DNA of 64,000 nt from Escherichia coli (GTDB taxonomy: Bacteria > Pseudomonadota > Gammaproteobacteria > Enterobacterales > Enterobacteriaceae), in the NCBI RefSeq assembly GCF_024502345.1, contig NZ_JALDNN010000001.1; one strand, written 5' to 3'. Position numbers and translations under genes: made by a program. Shown here in pieces: positions 7,929 to 62,331 of this stretch. A model generated the notes under the pieces. It did not search any database, was not told the origin of the DNA, and saw only the letters and a program-made list of their open reading frames with translations. Within the stretch, counting starts at the first letter, position 1. The number at the start of each line of letters is the position of its first letter.

Positions 7929-9614
7929 TTGAAGAAGGTTTGGCTTAACCGTTATCCCGCGGACGTTCCGACGGAGATCAACCCTGACCGTTATCAATCT
8001 CTGGTAGATATGTTTGAGCAGTCGGTCGCGCGCTACGCCGATCAGCCTGCGTTTGTGAATATGGGGGAGGTGATGACCTTCCGCAAGCTGGAAGAACGCA
8101 GTCGCGCGTTTGCCGCTTATTTGCAACAAGGGTTGGGGCTGAAGAAAGGCGATCGCGTTGCGTTGATGATGCCTAATTTATTGCAATATCCGGTGGCGCT
8201 GTTTGGCATTTTGCGTGCCGGGATGATCGTCGTAAACGTTAACCCGTTGTATACCCCGCGTGAGCTTGAGCATCAGCTTAACGATAGCGGCGCATCGGCG
8301 ATTGTTATCGTGTCTAACTTTGCTCACACACTGGAAAAAGTGGTTGATAAAACCGCCGTTCAGCACGTAATTCTGACCCGTATGGGCGATCAGCTATCTA
8401 CGGCAAAAGGCACGGTAGTCAATTTCGTTGTTAAATACATCAAGCGTTTGGTGCCGAAATACCATCTGCCAGATGCCATTTCATTTCGTAGCGCACTGCA
8501 TAACGGCTACCGGATGCAGTACGTCAAACCCGAACTGGTGCCGGAAGATTTAGCCTTCCTGCAATACACCGGCGGCACCACAGGTGTGGCGAAAGGCGCG
8601 ATGCTGACTCACCGCAATATGCTGGCGAACCTGGAACAGGTCAACGCCACCTATGGGCCGTTGCTGCATCCAGGTAAAGAACTGGTAGTAACGGCACTGC
8701 CGCTGTATCACATTTTTGCCCTGACCATTAACTGCCTGCTGTTTATCGAACTGGGTGGGCAGAACCTGCTTATCACTAACCCGCGCGATATTCCAGGGTT
8801 GGTAAAAGAGTTAGCGAAATATCCGTTTACCGCTATCACTGGCGTTAACACCTTGTTCAATGCGTTGCTGAACAATAAAGAGTTCCAGCAGCTGGATTTC
8901 TCCAGTCTGCATCTTTCCGCAGGCGGTGGGATGCCAGTGCAGCAAGTGGTGGCAGAGCGTTGGGTGAAACTAACAGGACAGTATCTGCTGGAAGGCTATG
9001 GCCTTACCGAGTGTGCGCCGCTGGTCAGCGTTAACCCATATGATATTGATTATCATAGTGGTAGCATCGGTTTGCCGGTGCCGTCGACGGAAGCCAAACT
9101 GGTGGATGATGATGATAATGAAGTACCACCGGGTCAACCGGGTGAGCTTTGTGTCAAAGGACCGCAGGTGATGCTGGGTTACTGGCAGCGTCCCGATGCT
9201 ACAGATGAGATCATCAAAAATGGCTGGTTACACACCGGCGACATCGCGGTAATGGACGAAGAAGGTTTCTTACGCATCGTCGATCGCAAAAAAGACATGA
9301 TTCTGGTTTCCGGTTTTAACGTCTATCCAAACGAGATTGAAGATGTCGTCATGCAGCATCCTGGCGTACAGGAAGTCGCGGCTGTTGGCGTACCTTCCGG
9401 CTCCAGTGGTGAAGCGGTAAAAATCTTTGTAGTGAAAAAAGATCCATCGCTTACCGAAGAGTCACTGGTGACTTTTTGCCGCCGTCAGCTCACGGGCTAC
9501 AAAGTACCGAAGCTGGTGGAGTTTCGTGATGAGTTACCGAAATCTAACGTCGGAAAAATTTTGCGACGAGAATTACGTGACGAAGCGCGCGGCAAAGTGG
9601 ACAATAAAGCCTGA
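7929..9614 (+). CDS. fadD: long-chain fatty acid CoA ligase
   Basis: 561 aa from TTG at 7929 ([14 protein letters not shown]...); AMP-binding motif [11 protein letters not shown]; ORF-track start at 7863 is a 22-codon upstream extension. Confidence 0.92.
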
Positions 9615-9633
9615 GCGTTAAGTCAGTCGTCAG

Positions 9634-9659
9634 ACGCCGGTTAATCCGGCGTTTTTTTT
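9634..9659 (+). terminator. rho-independent terminator of fadD
   Basis: acgccggttaatccggcgt stem-loop followed by T8. Confidence 0.8.
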
Positions 9660-15188: not shown

Positions 15189-16214
15189 TCAGGAATGTAG
15201 CGCTGGATGCGCGACAAAAGGTGTTTTCTGTTTGTGTTTTTTCTCCTGATACATCGCGATATCGGCAGCATGCAGGGCACTGTCTGCATCGGTCGTTTCA
15301 GGATCGACTTCTACTATGCCAAGACTGGCACCGGGATAATACAAATCAACATCACCTAAGTGATATTCTCCACGTATTTGCTGTTGAATACGTTCTCGCA
15401 GCGACGAAATATCCGCATTCTCGTTGTTTAGTGAAACAACCAAAAACTCATCACCACCGAGACGACCAATAACTTCGCCATTTTGCTGGAGCGTATTAAG
15501 GCGCTCGCCAACCTGAATGAGAAACAGATCGCCACTATTATGACCAAAACGATCATTGATTAATTTGAAGTTATCCAGATCGATAAACGCGATCATTATC
15601 TTATGGTTAAGATGCCGGGCGAGGGAAAACAGTGTTGTCAGATTTTCAAAAATCGCCCGCCGATTCGGTAGCCCGGTTAACGAGTCGGTATACGATTGCG
15701 CAATCAGCGCGGCATTGGCTTCGCGCAGCTGTTCAACCAACGCCTCTTTTTGAATATATTGTGCAATCAGTCCGGCGAATAACTGTAAAACCTGTTCCGC
15801 GCGTTCACTCCACTGGCGCTTCTCACTGCTGGCGGCGCAAAGCGTGCCATAGAATGATCCATCCGGTAAGTGAATTGGCGTGCTCAGAAATGTGGTGATG
15901 CCAAGATTGCGTGCCGCAATACAGTCGCCCCAACGGTCAGGGACTTCATCGCTGAAAAAGCAGTTTTCATCAATGGCGCGTTTGCATAACGAGTAATCCC
16001 ACGAGACGGTAAAATTCTCCGGGATGTGCATTTTCTGGCTGTTACGGGCAAACATAATATGCTGCAGGCGCGCTTCGACATCCACTTTGGTCAGGTAGGT
16101 TGATTCCATATCAGTGACCATTTCCAGCATCTCCAGAAGCTGTCGGACCAGACTTTCCAGTGACTGTTCTTTGGCAAGGGATTGCGAGACGCGGGCGATA
16201 ATCTGATCTGACAC
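15189..16214 (-). CDS. dgcP: diguanylate cyclase, GAF-GGDEF
   Basis: 341 aa from GTG at 16214 (GGAG upstream); intact GGDEF at 15445..15459. Confidence 0.88.
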   Translation of the reverse strand: MSDQIIARVSQSLAKEQSLESLVRQLLEMLEMVTDMESTYLTKVDVEARLQHIMFARNSQKMHIPENFTVSWDYSLCKRAIDENCFFSDEVPDRWGDCIAARNLGITTFLSTPIHLPDGSFYGTLCAASSEKRQWSERAEQVLQLFAGLIAQYIQKEALVEQLREANAALIAQSYTDSLTGLPNRRAIFENLTTLFSLARHLNHKIMIAFIDLDNFKLINDRFGHNSGDLFLIQVGERLNTLQQNGEVIGRLGGDEFLVVSLNNENADISSLRERIQQQIRGEYHLGDVDLYYPGASLGIVEVDPETTDADSALHAADIAMYQEKKHKQKTPFVAHPALHS

Positions 16215-18352: not shown

Positions 18353-19174
18353 ATGATGCACAGGTTGAATCTCAATGGCTATGAACCCGACCGACACCAT
18401 GAAGCCGCGGTCGCATTTTGTATTCACGCCGGAACGGATGAGTTAACCAGTCCTGTACATCAGCACCGCAAAGGACAGCTGATACTAGCATTACATGGTG
18501 CAATTACCTGTACGGTGGAAAATGCTTTGTGGATGGTGCCGCCGCAATATGCGGTTTGGATACCGGGCGGGGTGGAACATAGCAATCAAGTGACAGCTAA
18601 CGCTGAACTCTGTTTTCTGTTTATCGAACCCAGCGCAGTGACAATGCCGACAACCTGTTGCACATTGAAAATATCGCCCTTATGCCGGGAATTAATTTTA
18701 ACTCTGGCAAACAGGACGACGACTCAGCGTGCTGAGCCGATGACCCGCAGATTAATTCAGGTCCTGTTTGATGAACTCCCTCAGCAGCCACAACAACAGC
18801 TGCACCTACCCGTTTCTTCTCATCCTAAAATCCGCGCGATGGTGGAGATGATGGCGAAAGAGCCCGTCGAGTGGGGGTCATTGGGGCAATGGGCTGGCTT
18901 TTTTGCGATGAGTGAACGCAATCTTGCCCGACTGATAGTAAAAGAGACGGGGTTGAGTTTTCGCCAGTGGCGACAGCAGTTACAGCTGATTATGGCGCTT
19001 CAGGGATTAGTGAAAGGCGATACTGTACAGAAAGTTGCTCATACGCTGGGGTATGATTCAACAACGGCCTTTATTACTATGTTTAAGAAAGGCCTGGGGC
19101 AAACGCCAGGCCGATATATTGCGGGATTAACTACTGTTTCCCCACAATCAGCGAAACCAGACCCGCGGCAATAA
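18353..19174 (+). CDS. yeaM: AraC-family transcriptional regulator
   Basis: 273-aa ORF, C-terminal AraC HTH; divergent from yeaN. Confidence 0.85.
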
Positions 19175-20397: not shown

Positions 20398-21888
20398 TCA
20401 TGAACGGCTGTTTTTGTTCTGCTTATTGACATATAAACGCTCATCGGAAGCTTTATACGCATCATGTAACGTATCGTTTTCTTTCATCGCGTAAATACCG
20501 GAAGAGAAGCCGATCTCTTTCTGCGGCGCGATATGTTGCAGACGTTTTTCGATACGTTCAGGCAGTTGTGCTGCAATTTGCGGCGTCGAATCGACAAGAA
20601 TGATGCAGAATTCATCGCCACCGAGTCGGATGGCATAATCACTTTTACGAATCGATTGTTTAATCGCCTGAGCTAACAACGTAATCGCTAAATCCCCTTC
20701 CTGATGACCGAGGGTGTCATTTATTAGCTTTAACTTGTCCATGTCAATTGCAATAAACATCACCGAAGAACCGGATTGCACCAGTTTCTGCAACCGCTGC
20801 TCCAGTTCAGGGGTTAAAATTTTGCGATTATACAGTCCAGTCATCGCATCACTAATATTTTCTCGCGACACATTTTGGTATAAGCGGAAGTGCATCCGCA
20901 CCATATTCAGCAAAATTAACGCCGTCAAAATCCAGAACAGAACGATTTTCCACGAAGACGTGATAAAGTAAAGAATATCAATGGATAACGAGACACGAAT
21001 GCCGCCCGGTAAGTCATGGACGTAACTGACATACTGGAACAGATTATCTTCGCTCTGGTTGATGATAATGTCGCGCCCCGAATCTGTATCGGTTAGCGTG
21101 ACATTGAGAAAACGCCAGAGGAGAGGGCGGTCATGAGTGTAAAAGATATTCCGCAGATTGTTTTTGTTAATATCCAGCAGCACAATCCCTTTTAGCTGCC
21201 CTGCAACATACACCGGCGTCAGCAAACTCATCACGTTCTGTTTAGTACGCTGATCCTGGTAAATGCTCGACAATACGGTACGCCCGGTAAATACCTTTTC
21301 AATATCTTTGCGATCGATGCCAATACTTCCTGACTGCAGGAAGGACCAGTTATTCATCGCAAAGTATTCAACATTAACCGGCTCATAAAAATAGACATAG
21401 CGGTCATTGAGATCGAGATAATAGTGAAATTTCTCTTCGGCCATCCCAAGACCTGAACCGTAATCATCCTGGTGGCGGTTGCCTTCCACTGCCTGATCAA
21501 AAGCGGGTAATAGTGCTGCAGCTTCCACAATTGTGTCGCAGTCAGTGGATGCGGTTTGTAGTGTGCCGCGTAAGCCCGGGTATTTATGGGCAGTCAGGTT
21601 TAAGCCATGGGTATTATTGGCAGACTCAAAAGCCTCGCAGATGGCGCGCCGCTGTTCTGGCGACACTTCCGACTGCTCAGCAGCGAGAGCGCGCATCACA
21701 TGCGCGGCAATACTCTGATTCTGATACTTATCATAAAGAAAGGAGGAGTCTGCTTTCTGCACGATATAGCGCAGATAGGCACTCATTGCTCTGTCGCTGG
21801 CGACAAGTTCAAAAATAAGGAAGGAAGATGTCAGCACAATGACACTTGCGGCGATAAAATGCCGGAGCATTCTATGGTGCAATTTCAT
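20398..21888 (-). CDS. dgcJ: diguanylate cyclase with periplasmic sensor domain
   Basis: 496 aa from ATG at 21888 (MKLHHRMLRHFIAAS...); GGDEF intact at 20608..20622. Confidence 0.88.
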   Translation of the reverse strand: MKLHHRMLRHFIAASVIVLTSSFLIFELVASDRAMSAYLRYIVQKADSSFLYDKYQNQSIAAHVMRALAAEQSEVSPEQRRAICEAFESANNTHGLNLTAHKYPGLRGTLQTASTDCDTIVEAAALLPAFDQAVEGNRHQDDYGSGLGMAEEKFHYYLDLNDRYVYFYEPVNVEYFAMNNWSFLQSGSIGIDRKDIEKVFTGRTVLSSIYQDQRTKQNVMSLLTPVYVAGQLKGIVLLDINKNNLRNIFYTHDRPLLWRFLNVTLTDTDSGRDIIINQSEDNLFQYVSYVHDLPGGIRVSLSIDILYFITSSWKIVLFWILTALILLNMVRMHFRLYQNVSRENISDAMTGLYNRKILTPELEQRLQKLVQSGSSVMFIAIDMDKLKLINDTLGHQEGDLAITLLAQAIKQSIRKSDYAIRLGGDEFCIILVDSTPQIAAQLPERIEKRLQHIAPQKEIGFSSGIYAMKENDTLHDAYKASDERLYVNKQNKNSRS

Positions 21889-22068
21889 GATAAATGGCAC
21901 TCCTTCGGTTAGTGAAACGAGAAAACCAGATAAAGTTCGATTGCGGCCTGGCACAGGGGCGCTAATTATACTCATCTCTGCGCCGCTGGGGAGGGGAAAT
22001 TTAGGGGTAATAGTAATAAATTGTATGCAAAAGCCACGCAAAAAGCATGGCTCTGAATATTTTTGCAC

Positions 22069-23544
22069 TTAAATATGATGAATAATCACTTTGTTGCCCC
22101 CCTCGCTTTTCGCTTCGCGTAAGGCTTTATCTGCTTCCGTCATGACAAGCGAGATATTACGCGTGTCACCCGTTGAAAAAACCGTGCCAATACTGATGGT
22201 CATTTGTTCAGGAACATCATATCTGTTACTAAAGCCGGTCAGGAGTTCGACATTTTTACGCATACGTTCCGCAATGATTTTTGCCTGGGCACTATTGAGT
22301 TCGGTAAATAGCAAGCCAAACACCTCACCCTCCAGTCGCGCTAAAATATCATCGGGGCGGATGCTTTGCTGGATAATATCGACAATTGAAACCAGCACTT
22401 TATCACCCACACGATGTCCCCATTGGGCATTTATGCGCTTGAACTGATTAATATCAACCAGCATGACACAGAAGTCCTTAACAACAGGTCGCGACAATAA
22501 TGACTCTACGCTGTTGAAAAAGTAGCGCCGATTATAAATATTGGTCAGCACATCATGAACTGCCAGTTTGCTGGAGAGTTGCAGCTCCTGAAAAATGTTA
22601 TAAATCAGAAAAGACACAACAAACAGTTTACTGGAGACTTCAATCCCGCGACTGATATACCAGATGGTATAATTATACTCATCCAGAGTCAGTAGAAGTA
22701 AGTTGCAGCATAGCGATGCCAGACATAATAATGCTATTAACGGCCATAGTTCGCTGGCTAATCGTGTACGCATGATAATAAAGAACAGTAAAAATGCCCA
22801 CAGACAAACCAATATTTTTGTATAGTTGATTCCCCAGGTCGCAGTATGGTTGTCCGGACAGTAATCGACGACATACAAAGAATAGTCAGCGTTATAACTG
22901 CTCAGATTGTGTGCCAGAAGGGGAAAAACTAAAAAAGGAATCAGCGCCAGCAACAGAATGCCAGTTTTTTTCTTATTGTTGTCAAGGATGTTGTCTTTTC
23001 CATAACAAAAGAGCGCCAGCAAGGTTAAACAAATAAAACTGAGTTGGCGGAAAATATAGAAAATAGAAACATCATTCGACTTTGTCTGGATCAGTGTACT
23101 GCCGTTAATTGGTTTATGGATAATTACAATGGTTTCAACTAAATAGATAAGGCCACTTAAAAATGCAAGGCTTAAAATGAGTGTTGGTAAAATTTGTTTG
23201 TTAGTGAAATATTTCATTAACATGAAAAGAAAAATGACGGCGTTAAGGAAAAACAAAGCCACAACAACCATCAGGTAATTCATCTGTGGGATGAGTTTTA
23301 CATTTGTGTTTTCGTTATATAAGGTAGTAATGCAAAATAAAATTAACGTCAGCAATAAACTGAAAATAAAAAAGCTTTGAGCTTTTAATTTTTGTGTACC
23401 CATAGAAACCATAAAAAGGAGAGCAATGTGAGTGCTGGATTTTATTGATGGCAGAGATATATAGTTTTGACCAGGATCAATTTTCGTTAACGATAAAAAA
23501 TATTTAAAGAATAACCCCATGGAAATACGTGTTGACTGAATCAT
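22069..23544 (-). CDS. dgcI: GGDEF-domain membrane protein with degenerate active site
   Basis: 491-aa ORF; motif reads EGEVF (22318..22332) instead of GG(D/E)EF. Confidence 0.88.
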   Translation of the reverse strand: MIQSTRISMGLFFKYFLSLTKIDPGQNYISLPSIKSSTHIALLFMVSMGTQKLKAQSFFIFSLLLTLILFCITTLYNENTNVKLIPQMNYLMVVVALFFLNAVIFLFMLMKYFTNKQILPTLILSLAFLSGLIYLVETIVIIHKPINGSTLIQTKSNDVSIFYIFRQLSFICLTLLALFCYGKDNILDNNKKKTGILLLALIPFLVFPLLAHNLSSYNADYSLYVVDYCPDNHTATWGINYTKILVCLWAFLLFFIIMRTRLASELWPLIALLCLASLCCNLLLLTLDEYNYTIWYISRGIEVSSKLFVVSFLIYNIFQELQLSSKLAVHDVLTNIYNRRYFFNSVESLLSRPVVKDFCVMLVDINQFKRINAQWGHRVGDKVLVSIVDIIQQSIRPDDILARLEGEVFGLLFTELNSAQAKIIAERMRKNVELLTGFSNRYDVPEQMTISIGTVFSTGDTRNISLVMTEADKALREAKSEGGNKVIIHHI

Positions 23545-23690
23545 TTTTCCGAATGATTGTTTTCTGGAACTAAATTGTGTAAAGGTTATGCTGTCATATT
23601 TAAAGCGGTTGTAAGCTAATGTATGTAATAAATGAGATAATTTACAGTGAGCTAAAAATCAGCCAGGCGATAATGACCCGGCTGATAGTT

Positions 23691-62181: not shown

Positions 62182-62331
62182 TGTTGACTCCGAATGCTGG
62201 TTATCTATCCAGTGTAACAGGCGGGAAGCGATTAAAAAAGAGGCGGGTTGATGACAAAGGTTACACCGTCTGACGTGCTACGCCTGTCAGGCCTATTCGA
62301 CTCCTGCAATGCATTGAATTTGCATAGTTTT

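Follow-up and report, generated by a model that had tools for sequence, protein, structure and literature searches.

The adjacent dgcJ and cdgI genes of Escherichia coli: a diguanylate cyclase gene and a degenerate GGDEF gene with an intact I-site

Introduction

The neighbouring dgcJ and cdgI genes of Escherichia coli are probably two independent membrane-bound GGDEF genes that have long been adjacent: DgcJ a cyclase, and CdgI a non-enzymatic regulator that binds c-di-GMP. DgcJ is an active diguanylate cyclase, open to product inhibition, that carries a GAPES1 sensor in the periplasm and feeds NfrB. CdgI, anchored by its MASE4 domain, would have become non-catalytic in the ancestor that all Escherichia share while retaining its allosteric I-site, where c-di-GMP is expected to bind at R396, D399 and R427. 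Its degenerate GGDEF domain may then engage other GGDEF proteins heteromerically, or another target. The state of the motifs, their conservation, the selection on the gene and the synteny are shown, as are, in published work, c-di-GMP binding and two-hybrid contacts; both the full absence of cyclase activity in CdgI and its downstream output are points that we infer.

The locus and its GGDEF genes

The window analysed here, a stretch of 64,000 nucleotides, is E. coli chromosome. The region is matched at at least 95% identity by 5419 of 5426 complete E. coli genomes, and the gene pair is the known dgcJ–cdgI pair (Table 1). The original prediction, which is correct yet ordinary, placed a gene with an intact GGDEF motif beside one with a degenerate motif. 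The intact motif is borne out: read on the minus strand, 20608..20622 gives ggtggcgatgaattc, which encodes GGDEF. The degenerate motif also reads as proposed (EGEVF, reverse complement gagggtgaggtgttt), but its gene had been called dgcI, a name now given to yliF, a separate gene elsewhere in the genome; RefSeq calls the gene found here cdgI (formerly yeaI). Neither motif is a chance pentapeptide, since each occupies the A-site column of a Pfam GGDEF match (E values in Table 1).

A third gene with an intact motif, dgcP, had been put about 5 kb away and is indeed there: 4.2 kb separate it from the end of dgcJ, and the motifs of the two genes are 5.2 kb apart. All three proteins belong to the GGDEF superfamily, with Pfam PF00990 scores of 152.7 bits for CdgI, 136.1 for DgcJ and 140 for DgcP (cut-off 23.8) and TIGR00254 scores of 120–126 bits (cut-off 37.4). 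The canonical GG[DE]EF motif occurs in only two of the window's ORFs of at least 150 aa, those of dgcJ and dgcP. DgcP has no RxxD I-site (QNGE stands at that place). Three of about 19 GGDEF-domain genes thus sit inside 8.4 kb of a 4.6-Mb genome, where about 0.01 such triplets are expected; three genes this close by chance are unlikely, and synteny of the cluster extends to E. albertii and Citrobacter. A search of the region for noncoding RNAs and tRNAs found none.

The NCBIfam DgcJ equivalog model (NF040885) gives the dgcJ product 748.6 bits (cut-off 500) and CdgI only 66 bits. By this model the protein is the DgcJ of K-12, and the local gene order is that of RefSeq E. coli genomes. A longer ORF of 556 aa, starting from GTG at 22068, was set aside as mechanical in favour of the 496-aa coding sequence given by RefSeq and the NF040885 match. 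DgcJ is specifically needed for phage N4 infection and contacts NfrB directly; its published role is to supply c-di-GMP locally to this glycosyltransferase, which synthesizes the glycan that phage N4 uses as its receptor.

CdgI differs from the K-12 MG1655 protein by one residue (L175S, with 99.3% nucleotide identity), a strain-level polymorphism only. It has the layout of the MASE4-GGDEF family (DgcT, DgcX and CdgI), that is, an N-terminal MASE4 domain, with about seven hydrophobic segments in a hydropathy scan, followed by a GGDEF domain that matches diguanylate cyclases in the PDB down to E=1.5e-21. RefSeq's automatic label for the product, 'sensor domain-containing diguanylate cyclase', is probably wrong, and so is the start codon it annotates; codon 48 (ATG, 23403..23401) is the probable conserved start.

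Table 1. Features of the dgcP–dgcJ–cdgI region (positions in the window)
Feature	Position	Strand	Basis
dgcP (yeaP), 341 aa, GAF + GGDEF	15189..16214	-	Pfam, RefSeq
dgcP A-site GGDEF	15444..15458	-	sequence
dgcJ (yeaJ) CDS, 496 aa	20398..21888	-	RefSeq annotation of near-identical genomes
DgcJ layout: TM, periplasmic GAPES1 sensor, TM, GGDEF		-	Pfam GAPES1 E=6e-151, GGDEF E=1e-39; two TM-like segments
DgcJ A-site GGDEF, canonical, residues 423-427	20608..20622	-	sequence
DgcJ I-site RKSD (RxxD), residues 414-417, five residues before GGDEF	20638..20649	-	sequence
DgcJ GAPES1 periplasmic sensor, residues 31-304	20977..21798	-	Pfam PF17155
Perfect TATAAT, candidate -10 of a putative separate dgcJ promoter, in the 180-bp cdgI-dgcJ spacer	21965..21970	-	sequence
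Stable hairpin 16 nt past the cdgI stop, then UUU; weak terminator-like	22031..22053	-	fold -19.4 kcal/mol, z = -4.2
cdgI (yeaI) CDS as annotated, 491 aa, MASE4 + degenerate GGDEF	22069..23544	-	RefSeq; Pfam
CdgI GGDEF domain, residues 328-485	22090..22563	-	Pfam PF00990 E=9e-45
CdgI degenerate A-site EGEVF, residues 405-409; PleD G368->E, E371->V	22318..22332	-	sequence, PleD mapping
CdgI intact I-site RPDD, R396..D399 = PleD R359..D362	22348..22359	-	sequence, PleD mapping
CdgI MASE4 integral-membrane sensor, residues 88-319	22588..23283	-	Pfam PF17158 E=2e-49
AAAGGTTATGC, matches published SrsR (YgfI) box, yeaH-cdgI spacer	23581..23591	+	sequence identity
Terminator-like hairpin + T-run just past the yeaH stop, between yeaGH and cdgI	23658..23686	-	terminator scan

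Catalytic and allosteric residues of CdgI

CdgI residues were mapped onto PleD of Caulobacter crescentus, with the numbering verified. The two GGDEF domains are homologous (E=2.6e-18), although PleD is a soluble response regulator and has GGEEF and R446. The I-site is kept in CdgI: the RxxD that the original prediction asked to be looked for is present (R396-P-D-D399, ILARL, then EGEVF), as is R427, the equivalent of PleD R390. PopA (C. crescentus) and PelD (Pseudomonas aeruginosa) have degenerate GGDEF domains and are c-di-GMP receptors via an RxxD I-site. CdgI shares with them a degenerate A-site, a conserved RxxD five residues before it and the R390 equivalent; PelD is also membrane-anchored. 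The proteins differ in architecture (receiver domains in PopA, TM and GAF domains in PelD, which is encoded in the pel operon, and MASE4 in CdgI). Moreover, the outputs of PopA and PelD are known, whereas for CdgI only two-hybrid GGDEF contacts are reported, with no linked target gene.

Five conserved positions of the GGDEF domain are altered (D329N, D336A, G368E, E371V and R446G in PleD numbering), so that the signature GG[D/E]EF is absent, with E405 in place of the first Gly and V408 in place of the Glu at the fourth residue. R446G had been considered added proof of inactivity and was downgraded: R or K is conserved in this column in intact MASE4-GGDEF relatives, but DgcJ has N and DgcP has Q, and because both are without Arg there the loss in CdgI (Gly483) is not diagnostic alone. 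The equivalents retained in CdgI are those of D327, K332, N335, H340, D344, R359, D362, R366, G369, E370, F372, R390 and K442 (K479 in CdgI). They include the metal ligands (D327 and E370) and guanine-binding residues (N335 and D344), found in CdgI as D364, E407, N372 and D381, a point against the explanation that we favour.

Retention of these four residues agrees with another reading, that despite EGEVF CdgI has low but physiologically relevant cyclase activity and raises c-di-GMP like the other cyclases of E. coli. With five conserved positions altered, two of them in the signature itself (its first Gly and the Glu at its fourth place), we regard this as unlikely.

Published function of CdgI

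A receptor role for CdgI is already published. In Sarenko 2017 it is a non-enzymatic protein whose GGDEF domain is degenerate but has an intact I-site; when purified, this domain binds c-di-GMP by UV cross-linking (Fig. S4B), and it makes strong heteromeric two-hybrid contacts with several GGDEF domains, the partners being unnamed in the article's text. The proposal that the degenerate gene acts as a receptor thus holds in its conclusion, given the published binding and the conserved I-site. YeaI/CdgI is also classed as catalytically non-functional by Cimdins-Ahne 2023, and both classifications argue against residual activity. Overall, the inactivity of CdgI as a cyclase is predicted and widely accepted.

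The literature is not uniform, however, and in some of it genetic evidence is taken to mean that YeaI is an active cyclase. Citing papers credit Sanchez-Torres 2011 with a rise in c-di-GMP caused by yeaI in BW25113 and with 'verified' cyclase activity. In CFT073, the biofilm defect of a yeaI deletion in no-salt LB was complemented by the heterologous cyclase WspR, which favours a cyclase role, but WspR gave no rescue of the deletion in glycerol minimal medium. In the Sanchez-Torres work, an E407A change in YeaI is said to have abolished complementation. Shifts of c-di-GMP in vivo could also be the indirect effect of a protein that binds at its I-site or joins a heterodimer. We found no report of a direct in vitro enzyme assay of CdgI in the accessible literature, and a full-text search on the EGEVF motif returned unrelated papers only.

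Evolution and selection

Syntenic orthologs in Citrobacter enshiensis, Citrobacter sp. Awk 4 and Citrobacter sp. NCU1 are 57–61% identical to CdgI. They share its position (yeaG-yeaH-[MASE4-GGDEF]-dgcJ-yeaK), its architecture and its low GC content. All three are canonical at every mapped catalytic position (GGEEF, GRN) and are presumably still enzymes, to judge from these residues. In Escherichia, G368 and R446 are absent from E. coli, E. albertii, E. fergusonii, E. marmotae/whittamii, E. ruysiae and one further lineage. With canonical residues in the syntenic genes of Citrobacter, the predicted loss of CdgI catalysis maps to the stem of the genus.

Since then, the two sites have fared differently. 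The A-site drifts across Escherichia (EGEVF, EGNVF, EGEEF, DGEVF, EGDVF and EGKRF), and even the E370 equivalent is gone in the orthologs of E. albertii (N) and the P0018 lineage (K), which is unexpected for a working active site and weighs further against residual cyclase activity. The equivalents of R359, D362, R366 and R390 are constant across the sampled Escherichia, except for one cluster member with Cys at R359.

Could cdgI instead be a functionless relic, silenced and decaying toward a pseudogene? Its GC content is low (38%), expression is very low, and the protein is undetectable under standard conditions. Of 60 genomes sampled, about 4 carry IS insertions (IS5, IS1) or deletions; some strains have truncated protein clusters, and S. 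flexneri has lost the gene by deletion. On the other hand, purifying selection acts on cdgI. Its dN/dS is 0.05–0.14 within E. coli (0.05 for codons 48–490) and 0.075 against E. albertii, where dS is about 1 and near saturation for the NG86 method; the latter ratio is equal in the MASE4 and GGDEF parts, so both domains are equally constrained. The gene is found in 5418 of 5426 complete E. coli genomes (99.9%), an ORF of 447–491 aa exists in all six named Escherichia species sampled, the I-site is conserved, and SrsR, RstA and CsrA have been reported to regulate its expression. In particular, an SrsR box and SrsR-dependent expression of cdgI are published (PMC9181523). We therefore rejected cdgI as a pseudogene on its dN/dS and its retention in E. 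coli genomes, and consider decay to a relic very unlikely. The same disruptions do count against the regulator that we favour: because the protein is undetectable under standard conditions and about 4 of 60 genomes carry insertions or deletions, the function of CdgI is therefore dispensable in many settings.

Adjacency of dgcJ and cdgI

The two genes had been described as tandem paralogs. This description fails, as does a tandem duplication: the sensors differ (GAPES1 in DgcJ, MASE4 in CdgI), the GGDEF domains are only 29% identical, and closer MASE4 paralogs lie elsewhere. In the GGDEF domain, CdgI is 42–57% identical to its MASE4 relatives. Its closest paralogs are DgcT (YcdT) and DgcX, both active E. 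coli cyclases, and the YcdT-like proteins of Enterobacter, which share the MASE4 and GGDEF domains and are 40–41% identical to it over the full length (42–45% in the GGDEF domain). These proteins have GGEEF, D329, D336 and R/K446, all of which CdgI lacks. Nor does adjacency tell anything of a receptor role, because Citrobacter has the same adjacency with a canonical GGEEF MASE4 gene, and this part of the original argument falls away.

A pairing of the two products was implied all the same: CdgI would be a dedicated partner of DgcJ, a c-di-GMP-responsive pseudo-enzyme that forms a heterodimer with it and tunes the DgcJ-NfrB pathway. Such a partnership is compatible with two independent genes as a special case, and it agrees with the adjacency kept across Escherichia and Citrobacter, with the strong two-hybrid contacts of the CdgI GGDEF domain (again, with partners unnamed in the text) and with S. 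flexneri 2457T, in which both genes are missing or truncated. We give it little credence. Adjacency is older than degeneration, the joint loss in Shigella fits one deletion of neighbouring genes, and the differing sensors and 29% identity of the GGDEF domains count here too. In addition, studies of N4 and NfrB require DgcJ without mention of CdgI.

Expression also sets the genes apart. DgcJ protein is detectable and CdgI is not, and a hairpin and a separate candidate -10 box stand between cdgI and dgcJ. A single operon with yeaGH or dgcJ is not supported, given the hairpin past yeaH, the hairpin and TATAAT before dgcJ and the published difference in protein levels. The hairpin at 22031..22053 was missed by a stricter terminator scan; consensus promoter and terminator scans did no better than on shuffled sequence, and the hairpins and -10 box stay weak evidence.

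Conclusions

Two independent, long-adjacent genes, with DgcJ as the cyclase and CdgI as the c-di-GMP-binding regulator, thus remain our preferred explanation. Little of it is new: the degenerate A-site, the intact I-site and the c-di-GMP binding of CdgI are published, and the DgcJ pathway is assigned. The evolutionary pattern, with the I-site fixed, the A-site drifting and purifying selection lasting, is of modest added value.

A bolder and in our judgement improbable extension is that CdgI is a genus-specific pseudo-enzyme, an active MASE4 cyclase until its conversion in the Escherichia ancestor and now a c-di-GMP-gated inhibitor or scaffold that heterodimerizes with active cyclases, DgcJ among them. 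If true, this would tie local DgcJ-NfrB signalling, and hence phage N4 susceptibility, to the global level of c-di-GMP. Altogether, CdgI offers a clean case from nature of an enzyme turned ligand-binding pseudo-enzyme, and its real output is worth seeking.

A conserved cluster of GGDEF genes

The window is E. coli chromosome. Its 3.1-kb region of dgcJ, then cdgI, is matched at at least 95% identity in 5419 of 5426 complete E. coli genomes, and RefSeq places the two genes in a conserved run (gapA-yeaD-yeaE-mipA-yeaG-yeaH-cdgI-dgcJ-yeaK-...-dgcP). Three of the roughly 19 GGDEF-domain genes fall inside 8.4 kb, an arrangement expected by chance about 0.01 times and unlikely to be accidental; synteny of the cluster extends to E. 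albertii and Citrobacter. The original prediction located the motifs of dgcJ and its neighbour exactly, and the dgcP motif is also present. None of the three is a chance pentapeptide, since each occupies the A-site (signature) column of a GGDEF domain with a strong score. The name dgcI was mistaken. The degenerate gene, once called yeaI, now goes by cdgI (RefSeq; Sarenko et al. 2017), and dgcI is today the symbol for yliF, which lies at another place in the genome (Sarenko et al. 2017, PMC5635695).

Features of the window, with coordinates and strand
Feature	Coordinates	Strand	Remarks
sroD sRNA	9573..9658	+	Rfam, 115 bits
dgcP	15189..16214	-	341 aa; GAF + GGDEF domains
DgcP A-site GGDEF	15444..15458	-	read from sequence
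nimR/yeaL overlap	19131..19174		44 bp
dgcJ	20398..21888	-	496 aa; GAPES1 + GGDEF domains
DgcJ A-site GGDEF	20608..20622	-	read from sequence
cdgI-dgcJ spacer	21889..22068	-	180 bp
cdgI	22069..23544	-	491 aa as annotated; MASE4 + GGDEF domains
CdgI A-site EGEVF	22318..22332	-	read from sequence
cdgI codon 48	23403..23401	-	conserved ATG
cdgI codons 1-47	23403..23544	-	annotated 5' end
SrsR box	23581..23591		published box
ES036/CssrF sRNA	62289..62331	-	borderline; Rfam, 38.0 bits vs gathering score 37.6

DgcJ passes the NCBIfam DgcJ equivalog model (748 bits, cut-off 500); NCBIfam holds no equivalog model for CdgI. Most RefSeq genomes carry the automatic product name 'sensor domain-containing diguanylate cyclase', which clashes with both the degenerate A-site and the symbol cdgI. 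Translation of cdgI probably begins downstream of the annotated start, whose ATG (23544) is not conserved. In E. albertii, Citrobacter and the lineage of compared locus L005, in-frame stops precede the M45/M48 equivalent by 10-23 codons. Over codons 1-47, the window and SE15 differ by five changes, all non-synonymous (dS = 0). An ORF-finder extension of dgcJ (556 aa from GTG 22068) spans the entire spacer; the true start is ATG 21888, just preceded by GGAG. Elsewhere, nimR (+) and yeaL (-) converge with overlapping 3' ends, as in RefSeq, and the 64-kb window contains no tRNA genes.

A degenerate A-site beside an intact I-site

Aligned to PleD, whose numbering was verified against PDB sequences, CdgI retains the equivalents of D327, K332, N335, H340, D344, R366, G369, E370, F372 and K442, and is altered at five conserved positions (D329N, D336A, G368E, E371V and R446G). 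In structural work on PleD and WspR, G368 and E371 are signature residues, and K442 and R446 contact the phosphates. The R446 change does not settle the matter, since DgcP (Q) and DgcJ (N) likewise have no arginine there. At the remaining mapped positions DgcJ is canonical, and its I-site is of the RxxD type (RKSD); DgcP has a canonical A-site and no RxxD (QNGE). The I-site check proposed for CdgI came out positive: the sequence reads RPDD, then ILARL, then EGEVF, and the entire primary site is kept (R396, D399 and R427, equivalent to PleD R359, D362 and R390).

These features are already known. CdgI has been described as a degenerate GGDEF protein with an intact I-site whose purified domain binds c-di-GMP and which engages several further GGDEF domains in strong heteromeric contacts; it is CsrA-repressed, undetectable under standard conditions and toxic when overproduced, and it has been proposed to inhibit other GGDEF proteins in a c-di-GMP-modulated manner (Sarenko et al. 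2017, PMC5635695). EGEVF was tabulated by Spurbeck et al. 2012, and CdgI has been assigned, together with DgcT and DgcX, to the MASE4-GGDEF family and called catalytically non-functional (Cimdins-Ahne et al. 2023). The gene is activated by SrsR (PMC9181523), and in EHEC the yeaI promoter is bound by RstA.

The residues strongly predict that CdgI is catalytically inactive. This is a prediction rather than a measurement, as the accessible literature yielded no direct enzyme assay. Residual cyclase activity is unlikely, even though YeaI is a 'verified' cyclase raising c-di-GMP according to Sanchez-Torres et al. 2011 as cited by Spurbeck 2012 and Liu 2019. A yeaI deletion in CFT073 was rescued by the heterologous cyclase WspR in one medium and not in another (Spurbeck 2012). 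All of these results are in vivo and indirect, and a c-di-GMP-binding heterodimer partner could yield them without catalysis.

Predicted loss of catalysis on the Escherichia stem

MASE4-GGDEF relatives were gathered by protein search, with organisms taken from cluster look-ups. Orthologs from Citrobacter enshiensis, Citrobacter sp. Awk 4 and sp. NCU1 (57-61% identity to CdgI) are canonical at all mapped positions (DID..FK..IND..RxxD..GGEEF..GRN) and occupy the same site, between yeaH and a GAPES1-GGDEF dgcJ. G368 and R446 are lost in every sampled Escherichia species and one further lineage. The A-site reads EGEVF in E. coli and E. fergusonii, EGNVF in E. albertii, EGEEF or EGEVF in E. marmotae and E. 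whittamii, DGEVF in E. ruysiae, EGDVF in divergent 'E. coli' and EGKRF in the further lineage. The equivalents of R359, D362, R366 and R390 are kept throughout, except for a Cys at R359 in one cluster member. Together, these patterns indicate that the tandem arrangement is old and that the MASE4 gene was formerly an ordinary cyclase; as read from the alignments, catalysis would have been lost on the Escherichia stem, after which the A-site drifted and the I-site stayed fixed. Against MASE4 outgroups, the CdgI GGDEF domain is slightly more diverged (42-45% identity) than that of the Citrobacter ortholog (49-50%).

In the E. marmotae/E. whittamii cluster (P0007), 10 of 15 members have EGEEF, with the fourth-position Glu present and only the first Gly changed, and the other five have EGEVF. 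This split may reflect either reversion or ancestral polymorphism.

Selection and gene integrity

Against E. albertii, cdgI has a dN/dS of 0.075, equal for its MASE4 and GGDEF parts, compared with 0.034 for dgcJ, 0.010 for yeaH and 0.025 for yeaK (with dS near 1, these figures are approximate in absolute terms); within E. coli (window vs SE15, codons 48-490) it is 0.05. The gene is found in 5418 of 5426 complete E. coli genomes, and in a 60-genome sample spread over the ranking it was IS-disrupted in three and mostly deleted in one. Low dN/dS, near-universal presence and rare disruption mean purifying selection with occasional loss rather than decay, making a functionless relic very improbable.

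Mobile elements and deletions have struck the locus repeatedly (genomes H16, H18, H38 and H75; locus L007, 1153..3420; proteins P0026 and P0035). Both IS5 and IS1B are found inserted in cdgI, and one deletion removes nearly all of the gene. Deletion-generated cdgI'-'dgcJ fusion proteins exist and are rare. One MG1655 stock carries IS1A within dgcJ, as also recorded in PMC8117528, and in S. flexneri 2457T cdgI is missing and dgcJ truncated. The GC content of cdgI is 38% (MASE4 part 36%) against about 50% in flanking genes. This AT-richness is an old property, since orthologs are alike (E. albertii 38%, Citrobacter 37%), and might be linked to the very low expression of the gene.

Relation of cdgI to dgcJ

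The two genes were rejected as tandem duplicates: their GGDEF domains are 29% identical, a similarity no greater than either shows to DgcP, and their sensor domains (MASE4 and GAPES1) are unrelated. They are probably not one transcription unit either, given a terminator-like hairpin directly after yeaH, a spacer containing a perfect TATAAT box as well as a stable hairpin (-19.4 kcal/mol, z = -4.2), and unequal protein levels (DgcJ is detectable, CdgI is not). Adjacency is thus no evidence for regulatory pairing, and CdgI as a dedicated DgcJ partner, a reading compatible with our main view, is improbable. DgcJ itself is specifically needed for phage N4 infection and contacts NfrB directly; its sensor domain has been suggested to recognize a nutritional signal in Casamino Acids.

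The regulatory or receptor role originally proposed for the degenerate protein is therefore the right conclusion, already published, reached by a partly invalid argument from adjacency and a paralog pair. The best explanation, and a fairly probable one, is that CdgI is a pseudo-enzyme c-di-GMP receptor beside an unrelated active cyclase.
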